Below, piece after piece: positions 12,444-37,822 of a stretch of 64,000 nucleotides of DNA. The position numbers and the translations under genes were made by a program. Every line of letters starts with the position of its first letter. The first letter of the stretch is position 1. Source of the DNA: an uncultured Paraprevotella sp. (lineage in GTDB: Bacteria > Bacteroidota > Bacteroidia > Bacteroidales > Bacteroidaceae); assembly GCA_944321525.1 (NCBI GenBank), contig CALULQ010000015.1, positions 5,927 through 69,926 of the forward strand, in the 5' to 3' direction. The notes under the pieces were generated by a model, which was not told the origin of the DNA, did no database searches, and saw only the letters and a program-made list of their open reading frames with translations.

Positions 12444-12519
12444 GTCCGTATCGCATTTGTTATCATAACGAGGCAAAAACAAAGAAGCACCGCCCCTTGC
12501 GGCATAGAGCAGAAAAAAG

Positions 12520-12600
12520 AAATCCAATCCCTACGGCAGTACGAACTGCATCAGGTTCGAGGGTATAATCTCAGCCCCAACCCGGGCACCCCTTTGTCTT
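12520..12600 (-). promoter_or_regulatory. TPP (THI-box) riboswitch leading thiS-thiG-thiH-thiF
   Basis: The minus strand reads GGGGTGCCCGGGTTGGGGCTGAGATTATACCCTCGAACCTGATGCAGTTCGTACTGCCGTAGGGA. The GGGGUGC, CUGAGA and ACCUGAU...GCCGUAGGGA blocks are all present. Confidence 0.9.
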
Positions 12601-12609
12601 CACTGGCCA

Positions 12610-28696: not shown

Positions 28697-28708
28697 ACGG
28701 CCAAAACC

Positions 28709-28739
28709 TTGCCCATGCGGCAAAGAAGCGCTACCTTTG
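28709..28739 (+). promoter_or_regulatory. putative Bacteroidetes promoter (-33 TTG / -7 TACCTTTG) driving the cobalamin riboswitch
   Basis: TACCTTTG (28732-28739) matches TAnnTTTG exactly. CTTG lies about 20 nt upstream, and the box ends about 6-10 nt before the riboswitch P1. Confidence 0.5.
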
Positions 28740-28744
28740 TCCCT

Positions 28745-28925
28745 CGTCACAGGTGTCCTGCCTGCCGACCGGCATCCAGGATGAAAAGGGAATCGGGTGA
28801 AAGTCCCGGACAGTCCCGCTGCTGTAATTTCCAAAACGCACCAAAAGGCATACCCATGCCACTGCCCCGCACCGCGCGGGACGGGAAGGCTCTTTTGGCG
28901 CGGGAATAAGTCAGAAAACCTGCCT
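28745..28925 (+). promoter_or_regulatory. cobalamin (B12) riboswitch aptamer with no downstream ORF
   Basis: AAAAGGGAATCGGGTGAAAGTCCCGGACAGTCCCGCTGCTGTAA, B12 box ATGCCACTGCCCC..GGGAAGGC, and a closing AGTCAGAAAACCTGCC that pairs with ACAGGT at 28749-28754. Confidence 0.88.
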
Positions 28926-29224
28926 GTGCAAACTGTGGTTTCCCGCTTCGAGGGTTAGGCGGGGATTCCTCAAAGGATTCTGTCATGGTCTCTTCCATAT
29001 CGGCCGCCTCCACTTTCCGCCCGTAGCGGGAAGCGATGGCTTCGCGGCTTGGAAGAAAGACATGCGGAACAGGTCCGCCCCAGCACACGGTTGTCCGCAC
29101 ACGAAAGGCCGAAGCGATTCGCCCCGCGCCCGCCACACTTCATCTATCTGCTATCAATCAAACCCGGCAGGCGCAAGGACAAACGCACAGCGAAGGACAG
29201 GACACAGGAACCACTTTCAAGAGA

Positions 29225-29265
29225 AGCGGCATCCGGGACAAGACTCCTCCGGATGCCGCTTTTTC
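29225..29265 (+). terminator. strong intrinsic terminator about 300 nt downstream of the riboswitch
   Basis: Perfect 12-bp stem AGCGGCATCCGG / CCGGATGCCGCT with a 12-nt loop, followed by TTTT. Confidence 0.75.
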
Positions 29266-29863
29266 GCGAGAAAGAACCGGGACTACGCGAAAAAAGGCCA
29301 CTGCATGGCGGATTTTCGCCCACGTTCCCTTCCCTCTCCGGATAAGATATCCTGCTCAGTGACAGGGGAGCGCCCGCCCCATGAACTAAGGAATTTCAGA
29401 TGGCGTGTCATGCCAGCAAAAGCATAACGTCATTCAATTAATTCATCCATATCCTGCAGGTGTTTTTAATCAAATCATTCATATATCAACGCTTTTGTTG
29501 CATCCACGTTCTTTTTCAGGTATGGATTCCTTATTGATTGTTCTTCCAACCAAACAGGCTCACGTGTAATGCACATATAATCAAATTCTGATAAAACCCA
29601 CCCCACCTGCCCCCTATCTTTTTATTCATCGCCCATAACCGCTTCCGCTTATCGGATTCCCTTGCTTCCGTCCCTTTCATCCGAGCCACAGGACTACGTC
29701 ACGAGCCGGGAATCGTCTTTATTTACAGGACGAACAGGCCATCGGGCCATCAGAAGGAGGGTTGAAAGGGGGAAACTGGTACATGGCCCAGCTGCATCCC
29801 TCATACGCCGGACGGGGCAAACTGGCGGGCAGGACGGACAGACGCCTTGCGGAATGCAGAATT

Positions 29864-29903
29864 GTACTTTGCGGAGAGTACTCGAGTACTTGCCGCAAAG
29901 TAC
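29864..29903. repeat. GTAC-framed palindromic repeat, copy 3 (two arms)
   Basis: GTACTTTGCGGAGAGTACTCGAGTACTTGCCGCAAAGTAC, flanked by the outer complementary arms CCTTGCGGA and TCCGCAAGG. Confidence 0.9.
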
Positions 29904-30213
29904 GCTGACGCACTCCGCAAGGCGCCGCAGGGCATCGGGCAAGGACCGGCACGTCCGTGCGCCCCGCCGTCCGGGCACCGGCCGACAAGGAGTCTGGGAA
30001 ATGCCGATGGCAGAGCAGAACAAAGATTATTGGCATAAGTTTTTACAAAATGAAGATTCCCCGGCCAACATGCCGTTACCTGCCTGAACGGCAACGCAAC
30101 GGCGGGACCGGACCGAAGGGAAGCTATCCGGCCAACCACCCACGCGAAAGACTTTATCGGGCAATAATGATTTTTTTGCAGCCGTCCCACAAGGCCGCAT
30201 GAAATAAAAATTT

Positions 30214-30221
30214 TATATTTG
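30214..30221 (+). promoter_or_regulatory. putative -7 promoter box for the PfkB kinase gene
   Basis: TATATTTG lies 52 nt upstream of ATG 30273. Confidence 0.4.
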
Positions 30222-30272
30222 TACCGATTTTACCGCAAAACGAAAAAGAAACACATCTAAAACCGGAATATC

Positions 30273-31160
30273 ATGGACCGTCAATTTGTAGTAGGCCTCG
30301 GGGAAGTCCTGTGGGACATGCTGCCCGAAGGCAAGAAAATGGGAGGCGCACCGGCCAACTTCGCCTACCACGTGTCGCAGTTCGGACTGGAAAGCCGGGT
30401 GGCCAGCGCCATCGGGCGCGACGCCTCGGGCGACGAACTGCTGGACCACCTGCGGCAAAAGTCATTGCAAGGCGTGGTGGAACGCGTGGACTACCCCACC
30501 GGCTCCGTCGGCGTGGAAGTGGACGAGAAGGGCGTGCCGCGCTACGACATCCGCGAAGACGTGGCCTGGGACCACATCCCCTTCACGCCCCGGCTGGAGG
30601 AACTGGCGCGCCACACGCAGGCCGTCTGCTTCGGTTCGCTGGCCCAGCGCCACAGCGCGTCGCGCTCCACCATCCAGCAATTCCTCGACACCATGCCGGA
30701 GGAAGAGGGACGGTATAAAATCTTCGACATCAACCTGCGGCAGAACTTCTACACGCCGGAAATCCTGCTCAGCAGCCTGCAACGCTGCAACATTCTGAAA
30801 ATAAACGACGAGGAGCTGGACGTCATCAGCCGGATATTCGGACTGCCGGACACGGGCGTGCAGAAGAAATGCCACGGCATGCTGGAGAAATACGACCTGA
30901 AGGCCTTGATTCTCACCTGCGGCACGCAGGGCAGCTTCGTGTTCACGCCCGACGACACATCGTTCCAGAACACGCCCAAGGTGGAAGTGGCCGACACAGT
31001 GGGGGCCGGCGACTCCTTCACCGCCGCCTTCACCGCCGCCCTCCTGACTGGCCGCGACCTGCATGAGGCCCATCGGCTGGCCGTGGAAGTGTCGGCCTAC
31101 GTCTGCACGCAATCCGGCGCCATGCCCGTGCTGCCGCAGCGGCTGACGGAAAGGGCATAG
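30273..31160 (+). CDS. PfkB-family carbohydrate kinase (fructokinase-like)
   Basis: LGEVLWDMLPEGKKMGGAPANFA N-terminus and C-terminal DTVGAGDSFTAAF anion-hole motif. 295 aa. Confidence 0.85.
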   Translation: MDRQFVVGLGEVLWDMLPEGKKMGGAPANFAYHVSQFGLESRVASAIGRDASGDELLDHLRQKSLQGVVERVDYPTGSVGVEVDEKGVPRYDIREDVAWDHIPFTPRLEELARHTQAVCFGSLAQRHSASRSTIQQFLDTMPEEEGRYKIFDINLRQNFYTPEILLSSLQRCNILKINDEELDVISRIFGLPDTGVQKKCHGMLEKYDLKALILTCGTQGSFVFTPDDTSFQNTPKVEVADTVGAGDSFTAAFTAALLTGRDLHEAHRLAVEVSAYVCTQSGAMPVLPQRLTERA

Positions 31161-31263
31161 CCTCCGCCGCCCCTTCAAAGCAAGGCATAAACCCTGATAA
31201 AAAGGGATGCGCCCCGACGGACGCATCCCTTTCATTTTATACCGATTCCACAAAAAAGCTTCG

Positions 31264-33666
31264 CTACTTCACTTCCCACTCAAACACACCGGCCGAGTTG
31301 TCGGCGGGAAGCTCCACTTCCAGTTTCATGGCCGAGGTCTTCACGGGTTCGAAATCCACGATGTTGGGCAGGCCCTTCTCGCACCCGTAGTCCCCCTTCG
31401 CCTTCACCGGCGTCCAGTTGCCTTGGCTGTCCTTATAATAAAGCTTCCAGGCTTTGGGCACGCGGCAACCGCCCCACGGGCCGTCGTCGAACCAGTAAAC
31501 GGTGGAGGAAGAGACGGTGGCGGGCTGGGCGAAATCGTAGGTGAGCCACTCCGTGCCGCCCTTCTTGGGCCACCAATGGTAATAAGGCATGGAGCGGTCG
31601 TCGCCATCGGCCGGCACGAGGCGGTCGTTGATGGACGACAAGGCCGTGGTCTTCGTCGAAGCGTCCACGCGGCTCTCCGAGGCCAGCGTGGCCGGCAGGG
31701 CGGGCGTCGTGGCACTCAGTTCTTGCGGCAGCCACACCATCATGTTGCCCGCGCCGCGGTGTGCCCAGGCATAATAAGGAATCAGCGTCAGAGCCACGTC
31801 CTGCGGCCTCAGCATGCCTTGCGCGTCGTAGCCCAGCACCTGTGCCTGGGTCTGGATTTCCGTCAGTCCGTAGAGCAGGTCGGGCTTCTCCACCACCTTG
31901 AACTGCGGCTCGCGGGCCATCAGCAGGTTGCGGATGTTGAAGTCGTTGTCCGGCCACTCCGCGCAATAGACCACCGGGCCGCGCTCCACGGCCACACGCC
32001 CGCGGTCGGCCTCCACTTTGGAATTGGCCACCACCACGCGCGGCTCCATGTCGAAGTGCACCTCCACGCGGTCGCCCTTCTTCCACTTGCGCTCTATGGT
32101 GAAGTAGCCGTCCTGCAATTCGCTCTCCACCGGTTCGCCGTTCAGCTTGACGGAATAAGAGAGGCGCTTCCCGTCGTTATACCGGTAAAGGTCGCTCGGC
32201 ACCACCTGCCCGCGCACCCATCCGGGAATGCGTATTTTCATGGCAAACGTGCCGGCCTTGTTCTTCTTCACCGCCACCGCGATGTCGCCGTTCCAGGGAT
32301 AGCGGGTCTGCTGCTCCAGCACCACGTCTTTCTTGCCCACCTCCAGATTGGCTTCGTTGGACATGAAGAGGTTGACGTAGACGTCCTTGTCCTTCACCGC
32401 ATAGACGTAGCCCGGCAACGAAGGGATGAATCGGCAGATGTTCGACGGGCAGCAGGCACAGCCGAACCACGGTTGGCGCTGGTGCTGCCCCATGCTCTCC
32501 AGCGGGTTGGGATAGAAGAATCCGCCGCCGTCCAGCGACACGCCGGAAATCAGTCCGTTGTAGAGCGTGCGCTCCAACACGTCGTAGTATTTGGATTCCC
32601 CGTGCAGGAGGAAGAGCCGGTAGTTCACGTAGACATTGCCGATGGCCGCGCACGTTTCGCAGTAGGCCGACATGTTGGGCAACTCGTAATTCTTCCCGAA
32701 TGCCTCGCCGCTGGCCGTGGCGCCAATGCCGCCCGTGATATAGAGCTTCTTCCCGACGATGTTTTCCCATATCCGGTCGATGGCGTGGATATAGGCCGTG
32801 TCGCCGGTGAGCGCAGCCACGTCGGCCATGCCCGCGTACATGTAAGTGGCGCGCACGGCGTGGCCCACAGCCTCGTCCTGCTCCACCACAGGCTTGTGCG
32901 CCTGGCTGTATTCGTCGCGGCGCGAGGTGTGCCCGCGCTGGTCGAGGAAGAACTTGGCCTCGTCGAGATACTTCTTCTCGCCCGTCACGAGATAGAGCTT
33001 GGCCAGCGCCATCTCCGCAATCTGATGGCCCGGCACGCGGACCAGCTGCCCTTCGCCCGGCCCAATCTCGCGGCATACGCAGTCGGCATAGCGGATGGCG
33101 ATGTCGAGGAAGTTGCGCTTGCCCGTGGCCTGGTAGTGGGCAATGGCGCCCTCCACCATGTGGCCCAGGTTGTAGAACTCATGGCTCAGGTCCTCCACCT
33201 TCTCCCAACGCTTGCTTCCCGCCCACTCGTGCGGGTGCTTGGGGTTCATGGTGCGGGCAGTGTAGAGGTATCCGTCGGGCTCCTGCGCGGGAGCGACTAT
33301 CTCCAGCACGCTGTCGATGTAGGCTTCCAGTTTCTCGTCGGGATAGGTCTGCAACAGGTAGCTCGCGCCTTCGATGGTCTTGTACACGTCCGTGTCGTCG
33401 AACGAGAAGCCGCCCACCTTGTATTCCTCGCTTGGATGGGCCGCCTTGACAAAGTTCTCATAACGCCCCGTCTCCTCGCACTTGCTGAATGCCAAGGGAA
33501 TCGTCACTTCGCGGCTCGCCTTCAGGCGCTGCCCCCAGAAGCTGTCGGTCACCTTCACGGACGTGAACGGCACGGGCGAGAACGGATAACCATGGGTCAG
33601 GTCCTTGGCCTGCGCGCCGCACACGGCGGAGAAGATGCAGACAGCCGTAAACAGTTCTTTCTTCAT
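31264..33666 (-). CDS. glycoside hydrolase family 127 (beta-L-arabinofuranosidase-like) with C-terminal discoidin/F5-8 type C-like domain
   Basis: Signal peptide. DUF1680/GH127 blocks FDDTDVYKTIEGASY, EFYNLGHMVEGAIAHY, GHAVRATYMY, YCETCA and WFGCACCPSN. The C-terminal ~150 aa is a beta-sandwich ending NSAGVFEWEV. Confidence 0.9.
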   Translation of the reverse strand: MKKELFTAVCIFSAVCGAQAKDLTHGYPFSPVPFTSVKVTDSFWGQRLKASREVTIPLAFSKCEETGRYENFVKAAHPSEEYKVGGFSFDDTDVYKTIEGASYLLQTYPDEKLEAYIDSVLEIVAPAQEPDGYLYTARTMNPKHPHEWAGSKRWEKVEDLSHEFYNLGHMVEGAIAHYQATGKRNFLDIAIRYADCVCREIGPGEGQLVRVPGHQIAEMALAKLYLVTGEKKYLDEAKFFLDQRGHTSRRDEYSQAHKPVVEQDEAVGHAVRATYMYAGMADVAALTGDTAYIHAIDRIWENIVGKKLYITGGIGATASGEAFGKNYELPNMSAYCETCAAIGNVYVNYRLFLLHGESKYYDVLERTLYNGLISGVSLDGGGFFYPNPLESMGQHQRQPWFGCACCPSNICRFIPSLPGYVYAVKDKDVYVNLFMSNEANLEVGKKDVVLEQQTRYPWNGDIAVAVKKNKAGTFAMKIRIPGWVRGQVVPSDLYRYNDGKRLSYSVKLNGEPVESELQDGYFTIERKWKKGDRVEVHFDMEPRVVVANSKVEADRGRVAVERGPVVYCAEWPDNDFNIRNLLMAREPQFKVVEKPDLLYGLTEIQTQAQVLGYDAQGMLRPQDVALTLIPYYAWAHRGAGNMMVWLPQELSATTPALPATLASESRVDASTKTTALSSINDRLVPADGDDRSMPYYHWWPKKGGTEWLTYDFAQPATVSSSTVYWFDDGPWGGCRVPKAWKLYYKDSQGNWTPVKAKGDYGCEKGLPNIVDFEPVKTSAMKLEVELPADNSAGVFEWEVK

Positions 33667-33755
33667 GATGATTTGTGATAATAGTTTTTATTAGGTTAAA
33701 GGAAAAGGAGGCACGCGCGGTTTCCCGCCCGGCATGCCTCCCGTAAACTTGCATG

Positions 33756-35144
33756 CTATTCCGTCAAGGCACGGTAGACCTCCCGCGCCATGATGCGCGC
33801 GCCGGCCTCGTTCGGGTGTATCTTGTCCGGGAAGAGGCCGGGCTTGTTGTCCAAAGCCGAATGGAGGTCTATGACGGGCAGCCCGTTCTTCCGGGCCACC
33901 TTCTCTATCTTGGGGATAATTTCGCCTGCGATGATGTCGTCGTTGATGTGGTCGCCGGCCAGATAGGCCTTCGAAGGATAGCACAGGTAAATGTCCGGAT
34001 GCGAAGGCAGCGCCTCGAAAGCGTCCACCATGGCCTGCAGGTCTTTCTCGAAGTCTTTCTTGTGCTTCCAGTTGAACGACTTGCTGTCGTTCGTCCCCAG
34101 TTTGATGACCACGATGTCGGGGTTGAAGGCCAAAGCGTCGCGATAGGCCTGTTCGTTCATATAAGGCCAGTCGCCCTTGTTCATCAACGTCCGGGCGCTC
34201 ACGCCGAAATTCTTCACCCAATAGCCCTCGCCCAGCATGCGTCCCAACACGGCGGGGTAACTGTCGCGCCCGGGATTCCTCAACCCGAAGCCATACGTGA
34301 TGCTGTTGCCCACGCAGGCCACGCGGATGGCATCCTTGCGCGGCACCTTAAAGCTGGCGAGCCAGGACGTGAGTTCGTCGAGCATCTCGTCCTTGTACAG
34401 AAAACTTTCGCGGATTCCCCAGCCGTGGCCGCCCGACGGATAGACATGGAGCACGGCGGGAACACCTTGGCGGTTCAGGGCCAGGTAATAGTTCACCGCG
34501 TTGGCGGGCACGACCACGTCATCGTCGTCGCTACACACGATGAAGGCACGCGGCGTGTCTTTCGTCACTTGCCTTTCATTGGAATAGGCCGCCTCGTCTT
34601 CGGCAGAAGCATCCTTGCCCAGGAAGTTGTCGTGCGACCCGATATGGGTGTAGGACTTGTCCATCGTGATGACCGGATAAACGAGAATCTGGAAGTCCGG
34701 ACGGCTTTCCCCGCGGGCGTGGGTCGCCACGGTGGATGCCAGATGGCCGCCGGCCGAAGATCCCATGATGCCGATGTCCCTCGGATTAAGCCCCCAAACG
34801 TCGGCACTGTCGCGCGCCATCTTCACCGCCGCTTCGGCATCCGAAACGGGCAGCGACCGGTCGCCGTTCGGCATCCGGTATCTGAGCACTATCGCCGCTA
34901 TGCCTTGCTTGTTGAAGTAAGGCGCCCAGTCGTAACCCTCATGGTCGACGGCCAAATGGGAATAACCGCCACCCGGACAGATGACGACAGCACGCCCCGT
35001 GGCCAAATCGGGATCGGGAAGGAACACTCGGAGCGAAGGCTGCTCCACCTCGAAAGGAGCCGGCACTCCGGCGGCAGCCGCACGGCCCGCCGCCAGGCAC
35101 CACATCCCCACAAGAAAAAGGGAGTAAAGAAGTTTGTTTCTCAT
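33756..35144 (-). CDS. bifunctional esterase: alpha/beta-hydrolase domain + SGNH/GDSL hydrolase domain
   Basis: Signal peptide from Met 35144. CPGGGY..GSSAGGHLA..GGHGW (alpha/beta fold), then CVGNSITYG..GTNDS..DKIHPNEAG (SGNH blocks I, III and V). Confidence 0.85.
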   Translation of the reverse strand: MRNKLLYSLFLVGMWCLAAGRAAAAGVPAPFEVEQPSLRVFLPDPDLATGRAVVICPGGGYSHLAVDHEGYDWAPYFNKQGIAAIVLRYRMPNGDRSLPVSDAEAAVKMARDSADVWGLNPRDIGIMGSSAGGHLASTVATHARGESRPDFQILVYPVITMDKSYTHIGSHDNFLGKDASAEDEAAYSNERQVTKDTPRAFIVCSDDDDVVVPANAVNYYLALNRQGVPAVLHVYPSGGHGWGIRESFLYKDEMLDELTSWLASFKVPRKDAIRVACVGNSITYGFGLRNPGRDSYPAVLGRMLGEGYWVKNFGVSARTLMNKGDWPYMNEQAYRDALAFNPDIVVIKLGTNDSKSFNWKHKKDFEKDLQAMVDAFEALPSHPDIYLCYPSKAYLAGDHINDDIIAGEIIPKIEKVARKNGLPVIDLHSALDNKPGLFPDKIHPNEAGARIMAREVYRALTE

Positions 35145-35256
35145 GTTTGATTCATCCATTAATCGTTCTATCCACAAAGATAAGGATTTTGCACTTTTTC
35201 CTCTTCCTGCCGGATAAAAAAACGCCCTTATCATAGACTTATTTAACAAAACAGAT

Positions 35257-35264
35257 TATCTTTG
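35257..35264 (+). promoter_or_regulatory. putative -7 promoter box for the second GH127 gene
   Basis: TATCTTTG lies 29 nt upstream of ATG 35293. Confidence 0.45.
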
Positions 35265-35292
35265 TACGGACAAACCCTAACGACATAAACCA

Positions 35293-37740
35293 ATGAAGAA
35301 CAAAAGCTTTTTCAGCAGGCTCTCCGCATGGGCGCTTTCCGCACTGGCTTTCCCCCTCACGGGGCACAGCCAGACCGACGTTCCCATCTTGGAAGTCCCT
35401 TTCACCCAAGTACGGTTCCAAGACGACTTCTGGTCGCCACGCATGGAGACGAACCGGACGGTTTCCATTCCCTCGGCCTTCAAGGAGTGCGAGAAGAACG
35501 GCCGCTTCGACAACTTCGCCATCGCCGGCGGACTAAAGGAAGGAGAACACCGGGGCGACTTCTCGTTCGACGACACCGACCCGTATAAAATCATTGAAGG
35601 GGCGTCTTACTCGCTCGCCGTGAAATACGACGCACAGCTGGATGCCTATCTGGACAGCGTCATCACCCTCATCGCAGCGGCGCAGGAACCGGACGGCTAC
35701 CTGACCACGTGCGTGACCAACAAATGCACGCGGCTCTCCGGCTGGTGGGGCACGCACCGATGGGAAAAAATCAACAGCCACGAACTCTACAACTCCGGCC
35801 ACCTCTACGAGGCCGCCGTGGCCCACTACCGCGCCACGGGGAAACGCTCGTTGCTGGACGTTGCCATCAAGAACGCCGACCTGGTGTGCCAAGTGTTCGG
35901 ACCGGAGGAAGGACAGAAACACGTGCCCTCGGGCCATCCCATCGTGGAGATGGCGCTGGCCAAACTCTATAAGGTCACAGGGAACGAGCAATATCTCCGC
36001 ACCGCGAAATATTTTGTGGAGGAGACGGGGCGCTGCACCGACGGACACGCGCCCAGCGAATACAGCCAAGACCACAAGCCTATCCTGCAACAGGAGGAAA
36101 TCGTGGGCCATGCCGTGCGCGCGGGCTACCTCTATTCGGGAGTGGCCGACGTGGCCGCGCTCACCGGCGACACGGCTTACTTCCACGCCCTCTCGCGCAT
36201 CTGGGAGAACATGGCCGGGCGCAAGCTCTACATCACCGGCGGCATCGGCTCGCGGGCGCAAGGCGAAGGCTTCGGCCCCGACTACGAGCTCAACAACCAC
36301 ACGGCGTATTGCGAAACCTGCGCGGCCATCGCCAACGTCTACTGGAACCACCGCATGTTCCTCGCCACTGGGGACTCCAAGTATGAAGACGTGCTGGAGC
36401 GCGCGCTCTACAACGGCGTCATCTCGGGCGTGTCGCTGAGCGGCGACCGCTTCTTCTACGACAACCCGCTCGAGAGCATGGGACAGCACGCCCGCCAGGC
36501 ATGGTTCGGCTGCGCCTGCTGTCCGGGAAACGTCACCCGCTTCATGGCTTCCGTGCCCCACTACATGTACGCCACGCAAAAAAACGACGTGTTCGTCAAC
36601 CTCTACGTGCAAAGCACGGCCGAAATCGAAACGCAGAAGAACCAACTGGAAATACGGCAAGAGACGGATTACCCGTGGGATGGGAAAATCAGCCTCACCA
36701 TCGAACCTAAGAAGAAACAGACGTTCGCCCTGCGCCTCCGCATCCCGGGATGGGCGCAGAACCGCCCTGTGCCGACCGACCTCTATCACTACGTCGGCGA
36801 GGGAAAAGGCTTCACGCTGACGGTCAACGGGCAGGAAACGGACTACCGGATGGAGAACGGTTATGCCGTTGTGCGCCGGAAATGGAACAAAGGCGACCGC
36901 GTGGAACTGAACCTCCCCATGGAAGTGCGCCAGGTGGAAGCCAACCCGCAGGTGTTGGACGACCGCGGGAAGGCCGCCATCGAACGGGGCCCCATCGTGT
37001 ACTGCATCGAAGACAAGGACCAACCGGACAGCACGGTGTTCAACAAATTCATTCCCATCGGAACCCCAATGGCCTCCGTCTGCAAACCGGAAACGCTCAA
37101 TGGCATCGTCGGCCTGACCGGCATGGCCAAAGCCCTGTCCCGCAACGGCGACGTCACCGACGTGCCGTTCCACGCCATCCCTTATTCCGTGTGGAACAAC
37201 CGCGGCAACAGCCAGATGGCCGTGTGGATTCCCACCGCCCCGTCGTATGCGCGCCCCGAGCCGCTCCCGACCATCGCCAGCAAGGCCCGCACGCTGATGA
37301 TACAGGCTCCCATCCAGAAAGACGCCCCCGAGTCGGCCGCCACGGAAGCCTGGGCCTGGGGCGTGAACGACCAGTGGGAACCGAAACGCTCTTCGGACAC
37401 GTCCAAGCCCTACCACTACTGGTGGCTTAGAAACGGAACGGAAGAAACGCTCGCCTATGAGTTCGACCAACCTTACGCCGTTTCGGGCGTCGAGGTCTAT
37501 TGGCTCGACTTCGACCACTACGACGGCAACTTCCGTGTCCCGGCATCGTGGAAACTCTTCTACAAAGACGGGGACAGCTGGAAAGAAGTGGAAGCCACTA
37601 CGCCCTACACCGTGGACAAAGACCGATACAACCGGCTCGACTTCAAGCCGGTGACCACCACCGGACTGAAAATCGCCGCACAACTGCAACGCGGGGAGTC
37701 GGGCGGAGTCATCGAATGGAAAGTCATCCCGGCAAAATAA
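35293..37740 (+). CDS. glycoside hydrolase family 127 paralog with C-terminal discoidin-like domain
   Basis: Same blocks as 31264..33666: FDDTDPYKIIEGASY, ELYNSGHLYEAAVAHY, GHAVRAGYLY, YCETCA, WFGCACCPGN. Ends ESGGVIEWKV. Confidence 0.9.
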   Translation: MKNKSFFSRLSAWALSALAFPLTGHSQTDVPILEVPFTQVRFQDDFWSPRMETNRTVSIPSAFKECEKNGRFDNFAIAGGLKEGEHRGDFSFDDTDPYKIIEGASYSLAVKYDAQLDAYLDSVITLIAAAQEPDGYLTTCVTNKCTRLSGWWGTHRWEKINSHELYNSGHLYEAAVAHYRATGKRSLLDVAIKNADLVCQVFGPEEGQKHVPSGHPIVEMALAKLYKVTGNEQYLRTAKYFVEETGRCTDGHAPSEYSQDHKPILQQEEIVGHAVRAGYLYSGVADVAALTGDTAYFHALSRIWENMAGRKLYITGGIGSRAQGEGFGPDYELNNHTAYCETCAAIANVYWNHRMFLATGDSKYEDVLERALYNGVISGVSLSGDRFFYDNPLESMGQHARQAWFGCACCPGNVTRFMASVPHYMYATQKNDVFVNLYVQSTAEIETQKNQLEIRQETDYPWDGKISLTIEPKKKQTFALRLRIPGWAQNRPVPTDLYHYVGEGKGFTLTVNGQETDYRMENGYAVVRRKWNKGDRVELNLPMEVRQVEANPQVLDDRGKAAIERGPIVYCIEDKDQPDSTVFNKFIPIGTPMASVCKPETLNGIVGLTGMAKALSRNGDVTDVPFHAIPYSVWNNRGNSQMAVWIPTAPSYARPEPLPTIASKARTLMIQAPIQKDAPESAATEAWAWGVNDQWEPKRSSDTSKPYHYWWLRNGTEETLAYEFDQPYAVSGVEVYWLDFDHYDGNFRVPASWKLFYKDGDSWKEVEATTPYTVDKDRYNRLDFKPVTTTGLKIAAQLQRGESGGVIEWKVIPAK

Positions 37741-37822
37741 CGGACGGCACCGGCCGCCTGCCCCGTCTGCCCCAAACGCGGACGGGGATATTTTTTAACC
37801 CACAAAAGCAAATTCAAGCACA

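Follow-up and report, generated by a model that had tools for sequence, protein, structure and literature searches.

Why would a gut bacterium keep a cobalamin (vitamin B12) riboswitch that has no gene to control? The question is raised by a unit at positions 28709-29265 of a 64,000-nt stretch of contig CALULQ010000015.1 from an uncultured Paraprevotella sp.; this whole stretch is called the window here, and all unit coordinates refer to it. An earlier note on this DNA had read the unit as a promoter, a B12 aptamer, a tail, and a strong terminator, and had preferred a self-contained, B12-responsive noncoding RNA (ncRNA) of about 520 nt over the relic of a lost gene. All elements that it lists were found at the coordinates given there, and our comparative analysis supports this preference, since promoter, aptamer, tail modules, and terminator are conserved in seven species. 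We consider it somewhat probable that the unit is a gene in its own right, conserved in part of the genus Paraprevotella, whose product would be a riboswitch-led regulatory RNA of ~520 nt. More tentatively, we propose that it could be the first riboswitch-led trans-acting RNA in Bacteroidota, and this in a genus common in the human gut. A P13 kissing-loop platform, and not a terminator, would connect its B12 aptamer with a dedicated effector domain, and the invariant loop of this domain, CUAUCUGCUAUCAAUC, would either regulate genes related to B12 or titrate an RNA-binding protein. The flanking proteins likewise assign the window to an uncultured species of Paraprevotella. The relatives compared were 43 related loci fetched via the upstream ABC gene, and the comparison within the species used ten contigs with a layout identical to that of the window. 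Besides the window, the unit is carried by L011, L013 (P. xylaniphila YIT 11841), L015 (P. clara YIT 11840), L016, L018, L019, and L046.

The 5′ end of the unit has the elements of a Bacteroidetes-type promoter (28709-28739, + strand), with a -33 TTG at 28709-28711 separated by 20 nt from the -7 box TACCTTTG at 28732-28739, the latter already pointed out in the earlier note. Transcription is predicted to start at about 28744-28746, which is the 5′ edge of the P1 helix of the aptamer. The box is kept as TAnnTTTG in 8 of 9 related loci, with a TTG or TTTG about 20 nt upstream in all eight, and the exception is the hypermutated L018. The aptamer (28742-28930, + strand) comprises P1 to P6 with an extension and carries the B12 box GCCACTG at 28859-28865. 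A search with the Rfam Cobalamin model RF00174, as had been proposed, matched 28734-28941 (+ strand) over the whole model (1-189 of 189) with 99.8 bits, well above the gathering threshold of 31.5 (E = 9e-24). Both the core AAAAGGGAA...GGGUGAAAGUCCC and the B12 box GCCACUG were found in this match, in line with the well-formed aptamer described before. With R1, a covariance model built here from the orthologous aptamers and then run on the 43 loci, the window aptamer scored 215.7 bits. Two-sided compensatory changes affect 14 of the 52 predicted pairs among 8 orthologues, including pairs in P1, P2, and P6, while single-nucleotide polymorphisms within the species leave the pairing of P1 and P4 intact. 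Judged by its sequence and predicted structure, the window element has every feature of a cobalamin riboswitch, and it is accompanied by no open reading frame (ORF) regulated in cis.

Could the aptamer then act on a gene located farther downstream? In the window this would be the PfkB-family kinase gene starting at 30273 (+ strand), reached as in a conventional cis-acting riboswitch by read-through of the terminator, and PfkB does lie on the same strand as the unit both here and in P. xylaniphila. However, about 1 kb of spacer and an intrinsic terminator, which forms the 3′ end of the unit (29225-29265, + strand), stand between the two. This terminator consists of a 12-bp G+C-rich stem, AGCGGCATCCGG/CCGGATGCCGCT, followed by TTTTT. 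Its fold of -29.0 kcal/mol (z = -5.6) was matched in stability by none of 200 shuffled sequences, which confirms that it is strong; its loop, longer than 8 nt, was the only reason why a simple scan for terminators overlooked it. Every species has a hairpin and T-run at this relative position; the stem sequence differs from one species to the next, and two-sided changes affect 5 of 8 pairs. Within the species, only 2 polymorphic sites fall in 29101-29265 (165 nt) versus 31 in 29269-29419, and this jump right after the terminator indicates that the constrained unit ends there. Among the ten same-species contigs, the 31 differences at 29269-29419 represent two divergent haplotypes, and the sharpness of the boundary suggests that the segment was replaced or that a recombination hot spot lies here.

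The genes beyond the terminator also argue against read-through. PfkB is the next + strand gene in the window, as previously noted, and is preceded by its own TATATTTG box; it is a sugar kinase without a known link to B12. In every carrier species the genes past the terminator vary, often lying on the opposite strand, as with the SusC/D-type locus in L011, the H+-pyrophosphatase in L019, and another gene in L046, whereas in L013 an unrelated LRR protein gene intervenes before PfkB. Control in cis of a downstream coding gene therefore finds neither a conserved ORF nor an open 3′ end nor a constant neighbor, and we regard read-through into PfkB as very improbable.

What, then, lies between aptamer and terminator? 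Directly 3′ of P1 is a P13-like regulatory hairpin (28937-28969, + strand) with a folding energy of -14.7 kcal/mol and the loop TTCGAGGGTTAG at 28947-28958. This 12-nt loop, UUCGAGGGUUAG in the RNA, is identical in 6 of the 8 sequences, with one substitution in L016 and an altered loop in the hypermutated L018. As controls for pairing, the partner strands were slid against each other, and paired cells and two-sided changes were counted. The P13-like hairpin had 92% of its cells paired, compared to 31-64% in the slid controls; it is mostly invariant and shows one compensatory pair, C-G to U-A, in three sequences. By its position and its GGG it would correspond to P13/L13, and this GGG could form a kissing interaction with the CCC of L5 (GUCCCGC). 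The hairpin is followed by a variable linker (28970-29103, + strand) that measures 46-142 nt depending on the species, is not alignable in distant species, and contains more C than G in every species.

Downstream of the linker, the small hairpin H1 (GGCCGAAGCGATTCGCCC, 29107-29124, + strand) has the stem CGAA/TTCG and the loop GCGA. It is identical (GGCCGAAGCGAUUCGCCC) in 6 of the 8 sequences, and L019 has the loop GTGA, which is still a GNRA loop. All cells of H1 (100%) are paired, and its sole two-sided change occurs in the hypermutated L018, so that the helix rests on invariance rather than on covariation. The H2 stem GCGCCCGCC/GGCAGGCGC (29126-29174, + strand) encloses a 31-nt loop holding the 16-mer CTATCTGCTATCAATC at 29144-29159, which is invariant in seven species, one with a 1-nt insertion. 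This 16-mer lies in a predicted loop and is a candidate effector site, either a seed or a protein-binding site. Since a MAFFT alignment of the trimmed H2 hairpins was unusable, H2 was assessed by per-species folds, by duplex energies of cognate and noncognate flanks, and by pair counts. The sequence of the stem is specific to each species, yet complementarity is kept: 4 of 7 pairs are changed on both sides, and cognate flanks pair at -15.5 kcal/mol versus -11.2 kcal/mol for noncognate ones. In minimum-free-energy folds made species by species, the motif is enclosed by a similar stem in most of the seven, L016 being less clear. An A-rich, U-poor spacer (29175-29224, + strand) leads to the terminator; across all species its A content is 28-46% and its U content 6-16%.

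Taken together in the plain MAFFT alignment, H1, H2, and the terminator had 82.7% of their cells paired versus 29-45% in the slid controls, with two-sided changes in ten pairs versus 0 to 5. The same tail modules emerged from the tail alignment and from the independent per-species folds. The earlier proposal to look for conservation in the tail was thus rewarded with two near-invariant blocks, of 20 and 16 nt, and with covarying stems. A metagenome scan for H1 and, after it, the beginning of the loop motif yielded 50 contigs, and the aptamer was upstream at a fixed distance in 50 of 50, those cut by a contig end included, which means that the tail occurs only with the riboswitch. Searched against Rfam at E values up to 10, the tail matched no family, apart from spurious matches of microRNA models to its hairpins. 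The 5′ part of the P13 hairpin and loop, CGCUUCG (28947-28953), is complementary over 7 bp to the 5′ strand and loop of H1, CGAAGCG (29110-29116), both being invariant; as an alternative long-range switch this pairing was given little weight, the minimum-free-energy folds retaining both hairpins. An 11-nt complementarity between the 3′ end of ABC and the linker was also set aside, being at chance level in a nonconserved region.

Might these conserved blocks instead encode a small protein under riboswitch control? In 5 of the 8 sequences a single frame reads GRSDSP...CYLLSI, and an ATG is common to L013, L015, and L018. However, the blocks lie 13, 14, 17, 18, or 19 nt apart depending on the species and are therefore read in three relative frames: relative to the shared YLLSI frame, the first block reads GRSDSP, RPKRFA (the window and L016), or AEAIRP (L011). 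Substitutions between L013 and L018 are spread over codon positions 1, 2, and 3 as 13, 11, and 10, without periodicity or enrichment at the third position. Among the ten same-species contigs, 1-nt indels occur at 29078, inside the linker, and at 30039, and thus there is no coding constraint at these sites. The + strand ORFs starting at 29036, 29049, and 29062 do exist, and all read through the terminator. Pfam gave no match to any of the seven ORFs that were tested on the two strands of 28747-30190, and a pseudogene in this interval was likewise discarded. By the frame and codon-position tests the tail is noncoding. The statement that no plausible coding sequence follows on the + strand consequently holds, no conserved small ORF came to light that would speak against it, and a small protein has next to no probability.

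A noncoding tail without a downstream target is also what would remain of an orphaned and decaying leader, left behind by a deleted B12-regulated gene of the btuB type or another. P13 kissing-loop expression platforms are typical of translational control of an ORF, so that the type of platform fits such a relic, as do the missing ORF, the loss of the locus in L014 and its truncation in L012, and the ~1 kb of gene-free DNA with a dispersed repeat downstream. Rates of divergence argue otherwise. At four-fold degenerate sites, nadK and ABC share only 40-71% identity over all species pairs (40-49% between the window and P. xylaniphila), whereas aptamer and P13 are 75-80% identical and the tail blocks nearly invariant. 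Such conservation next to near-saturated synonymous sites indicates purifying selection and not decay, and it extends in seven species to the promoter, the aptamer, the tail hairpins, and the terminator, with compensatory changes. Synteny points the same way. The unit lies directly 3′ of the ABC gene of the nadK-ABC operon in all eight carriers, and no B12-related gene, btuB included, occupies its position in any relative examined. In basal lineages xth follows ABC immediately; the ancestral order was therefore nadK-ABC-xth, and a B12 transporter was never at the site. The intergenic ORFs, as said, lack any Pfam signal. We thus disfavor the btuB-type relic, the alternative that had been offered alongside the ncRNA, and consider it improbable.

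Several observations weigh against a stand-alone trans-acting RNA. In all eight carriers ~45 nt separate the stop codon of ABC from the start of the unit, and this gap contains no terminator. The locus is lost in L014 and truncated in L012 and is hence dispensable in some lineages, not essential. The eight carriers amount to about seven independent species: L018, hypermutated over the ncRNA region, is not independent and was excluded as covariation evidence. From P13 to H1, the window sequence contains no hairpin plus U-run that could serve as an attenuator, and the species compared do not share one either. Finally, a search of the 64-kb window for complements of the loop motif gave none of 9 nt or more, and in the 1.38 Mb of fetched loci only 10-mers at chance level turned up, far too little sequence for a test of targets; the duplex energies of the motif with neighboring start regions are within background.

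The first of these observations also underlies the most serious rival, in which the unit would belong to the nadK-ABC operon as its 3′ untranslated region (3′ UTR) and terminator, acting in cis on the mRNA upstream, for instance through B12-dependent stability of the 3′ end, or processed from the operon transcript. Beyond the constant spacing in all eight species and the lack of an intervening terminator, relatives without the riboswitch, such as L021 and L017, have a terminator directly after ABC. On the other hand, the conserved -33/-7 promoter has the proper spacing and sits precisely where the aptamer begins at its 5′ edge. The ABC protein is a generic MsbA-like exporter without a link to B12, and the nadK-ABC pair occurs throughout Prevotellaceae without the element. 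With R1, the aptamer was absent from L014, L017, L021-L025, L051, and all more distant Prevotellaceae among the 43 related loci, and L012 was the locus in which it was truncated. Linkage to ABC is moreover to be expected even of an independent gene, because a 45-nt spacer leaves little room for rearrangement. Read-through transcripts from nadK-ABC probably exist alongside the primary transcript, and we judge a 3′ UTR unlikely as the full account of the unit.

How would a stand-alone, riboswitch-led RNA work? At the sequence level, a promoter and an intrinsic terminator bound a noncoding unit, as in base-pairing small RNAs (sRNAs) of Bacteroidetes. Cobalamin riboswitches are nearly always OFF switches. 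Here, binding of B12 would stabilize the L5-L13 kissing loop and lock P13, and the locked P13 would make the 3′ effector domain less abundant or less accessible. Because no conserved intrinsic attenuator lies between P13 and H1, this coupling would likely rely on termination by Rho or on the action of an RNase, either one within the C-rich linker, or else on refolding of the RNA. The excess of C over G in the linker hints, if weakly, at a site where Rho could load. At low B12, the full-length RNA would accumulate, and its invariant loop could then act in trans by base pairing with an mRNA or by contacting an RNA-binding protein, so that B12-related expression would be adjusted.

Is such an arrangement known elsewhere? 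EutX of Enterococcus faecalis and Rli55 of Listeria monocytogenes are ncRNAs regulated by B12 riboswitches that sequester the ANTAR regulator EutV. The Paraprevotella unit shares with them a 5′ cobalamin riboswitch, a structured noncoding effector, and a terminator, here recognized from sequence, as well as the implied logic by which B12 status would set the availability of a trans-acting RNA. It differs in its phylum, Bacteroidota instead of Firmicutes, and in its neighbors, which are nadK, ABC, and PfkB and not eut genes. Whereas EutX and Rli55 have an early terminator controlled by the riboswitch, none is found here between aptamer and effector. They also possess a dual hexaloop ANTAR site, while a scan of 28930-29270 gave one AxxGxx candidate, formed when H1 is read as CGA[AGCGAT]TCG. 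The likeness to EutX and Rli55 drawn in the earlier note accordingly stands for the design logic and fails for the early terminator and the ANTAR sites; with these defining features absent, the predicted unit resembles the two RNAs in logic and is not a member of their class.

Like canonical RF00174 riboswitches with a P13/L13 platform, known from Gram-negative btuB leaders, the unit has a full aptamer, a B12 box, and a hairpin with a GGG loop complementary to the CCC of L5. Unlike btuB leaders, it has no ORF or conserved start codon after P13, and a conserved noncoding domain and terminator take their place. In AspocR, an antisense RNA of Listeria, a B12 riboswitch likewise governs a noncoding transcript, but the Paraprevotella unit terminates before any gene, with variable genes downstream, and is antisense to nothing. 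SreA and SreB, transcripts of Listeria S-adenosylmethionine (SAM) riboswitches that act in trans, offer a precedent for a riboswitch-containing RNA as a trans regulator, the role proposed here; they are terminated leaders of real mRNAs in which the riboswitch itself pairs, whereas here there is a dedicated 3′ domain and no mRNA. Intergenic sRNAs of Bacteroides such as GibS have their own promoter, an intrinsic terminator, and a conserved, predicted single-stranded region as a possible seed (PMC7366714). The unit shares with these sRNAs the Bacteroidetes-type promoter, the terminator, and a conserved candidate seed in a predicted loop, and it differs in being much longer, in its 5′ metabolite-sensing aptamer, and in showing no homology to them.

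No published description of a riboswitch-led ncRNA from Bacteroidales or Paraprevotella was found in Rfam or in the literature searched, in agreement with the earlier note, whose author knew of no described Bacteroidales equivalent. To our knowledge, very few riboswitches control ncRNAs rather than mRNAs, and the B12 cases that we know of all come from Firmicutes, EutX and Rli55 using a terminator plus ANTAR decoy sites. The sequence evidence suggests a B12-controlled regulatory RNA of the kind described so far only in Firmicutes. The design is thus already known; what would be new is the phylum of this predicted riboswitch-led ncRNA, together with its platform and its effector domain, both of which differ from the known ones. 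If this is true, aptamer-ncRNA fusions arose more than once. Bacteroidetes, as far as we know, lack Hfq and ProQ, and the field of RNA regulation there is young; the unit would provide it with a ligand-switchable RNA to study. It could also show a gut commensal linking the availability of B12, a key currency of gut competition, to gene expression in trans. The presence of the locus in the named strains P. clara YIT 11840 and P. xylaniphila YIT 11841 makes the question directly testable.

The neighbors of the unit in the window are pdxJ, nadK, the ABC exporter, PfkB, and GH127 enzymes. At 28697-37822, the ~9 kb between ABC and xth hold the ncRNA, PfkB, two GH127 beta-L-arabinofuranosidase-like genes, and an esterase, and in L017 only a GH127 gene separates ABC from xth. 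Compared with the window, L023-L025 and L017 mark the site after ABC as a rearrangement hot spot. In the close relative L014 (11636-11720), ABC is followed by about four tandem copies of the 22-nt unit CCCAGTTTCAGAGCCTGAAACA and then valS, without the ncRNA.

Some peculiarities of individual loci were recorded as well. In L018 (MAG contig CAYPMY010000153.1, 2590-3140), the ncRNA region has ~76% G+C versus 52-59% in its flanks. When this region is compared with P. clara and P. xylaniphila, A>G and T>C changes, equally frequent, make up ~150 of 200 substitutions; the neighboring ABC gene, at 87% identity, shows only a mild bias. The pattern stems either from hypermutation by transitions at this locus or from an artifact of sequencing or assembly. 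Apparent deletions of the aptamer in the metagenome contigs L060 and L107 were dismissed as contig-end chimeras, the sequences of L107 (CTCGGAGATGTGTATAAGAGACAG) and L060 (CTGTCTCTT) running into a Nextera adapter. An apparent deletion in L091 is probably the same chimera, since it diverges at the same point as L060, although no adapter was seen.

Between the ncRNA terminator and PfkB, an 82-nt palindromic hairpin (29843-29924) has 41-nt arms that are ~80% complementary and folds with -52.9 kcal/mol (z = -8.7). It is a member of a family of dispersed repeats, with TTGTACTTTGCGGAGAGTACTC as the core and six matches in the 64 kb against a chance expectation of none, the other copies lying near 1227 (- strand), 14455 (+), 49917 (+), 58656 (+), and 58700 (-). 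This repeat looks like a REP- or MITE-like element. Elsewhere in the window, 12511-12603 (- strand) matches the thiamine pyrophosphate (TPP) riboswitch family RF00059 with 63.3 bits, above the gathering threshold of 54.3.

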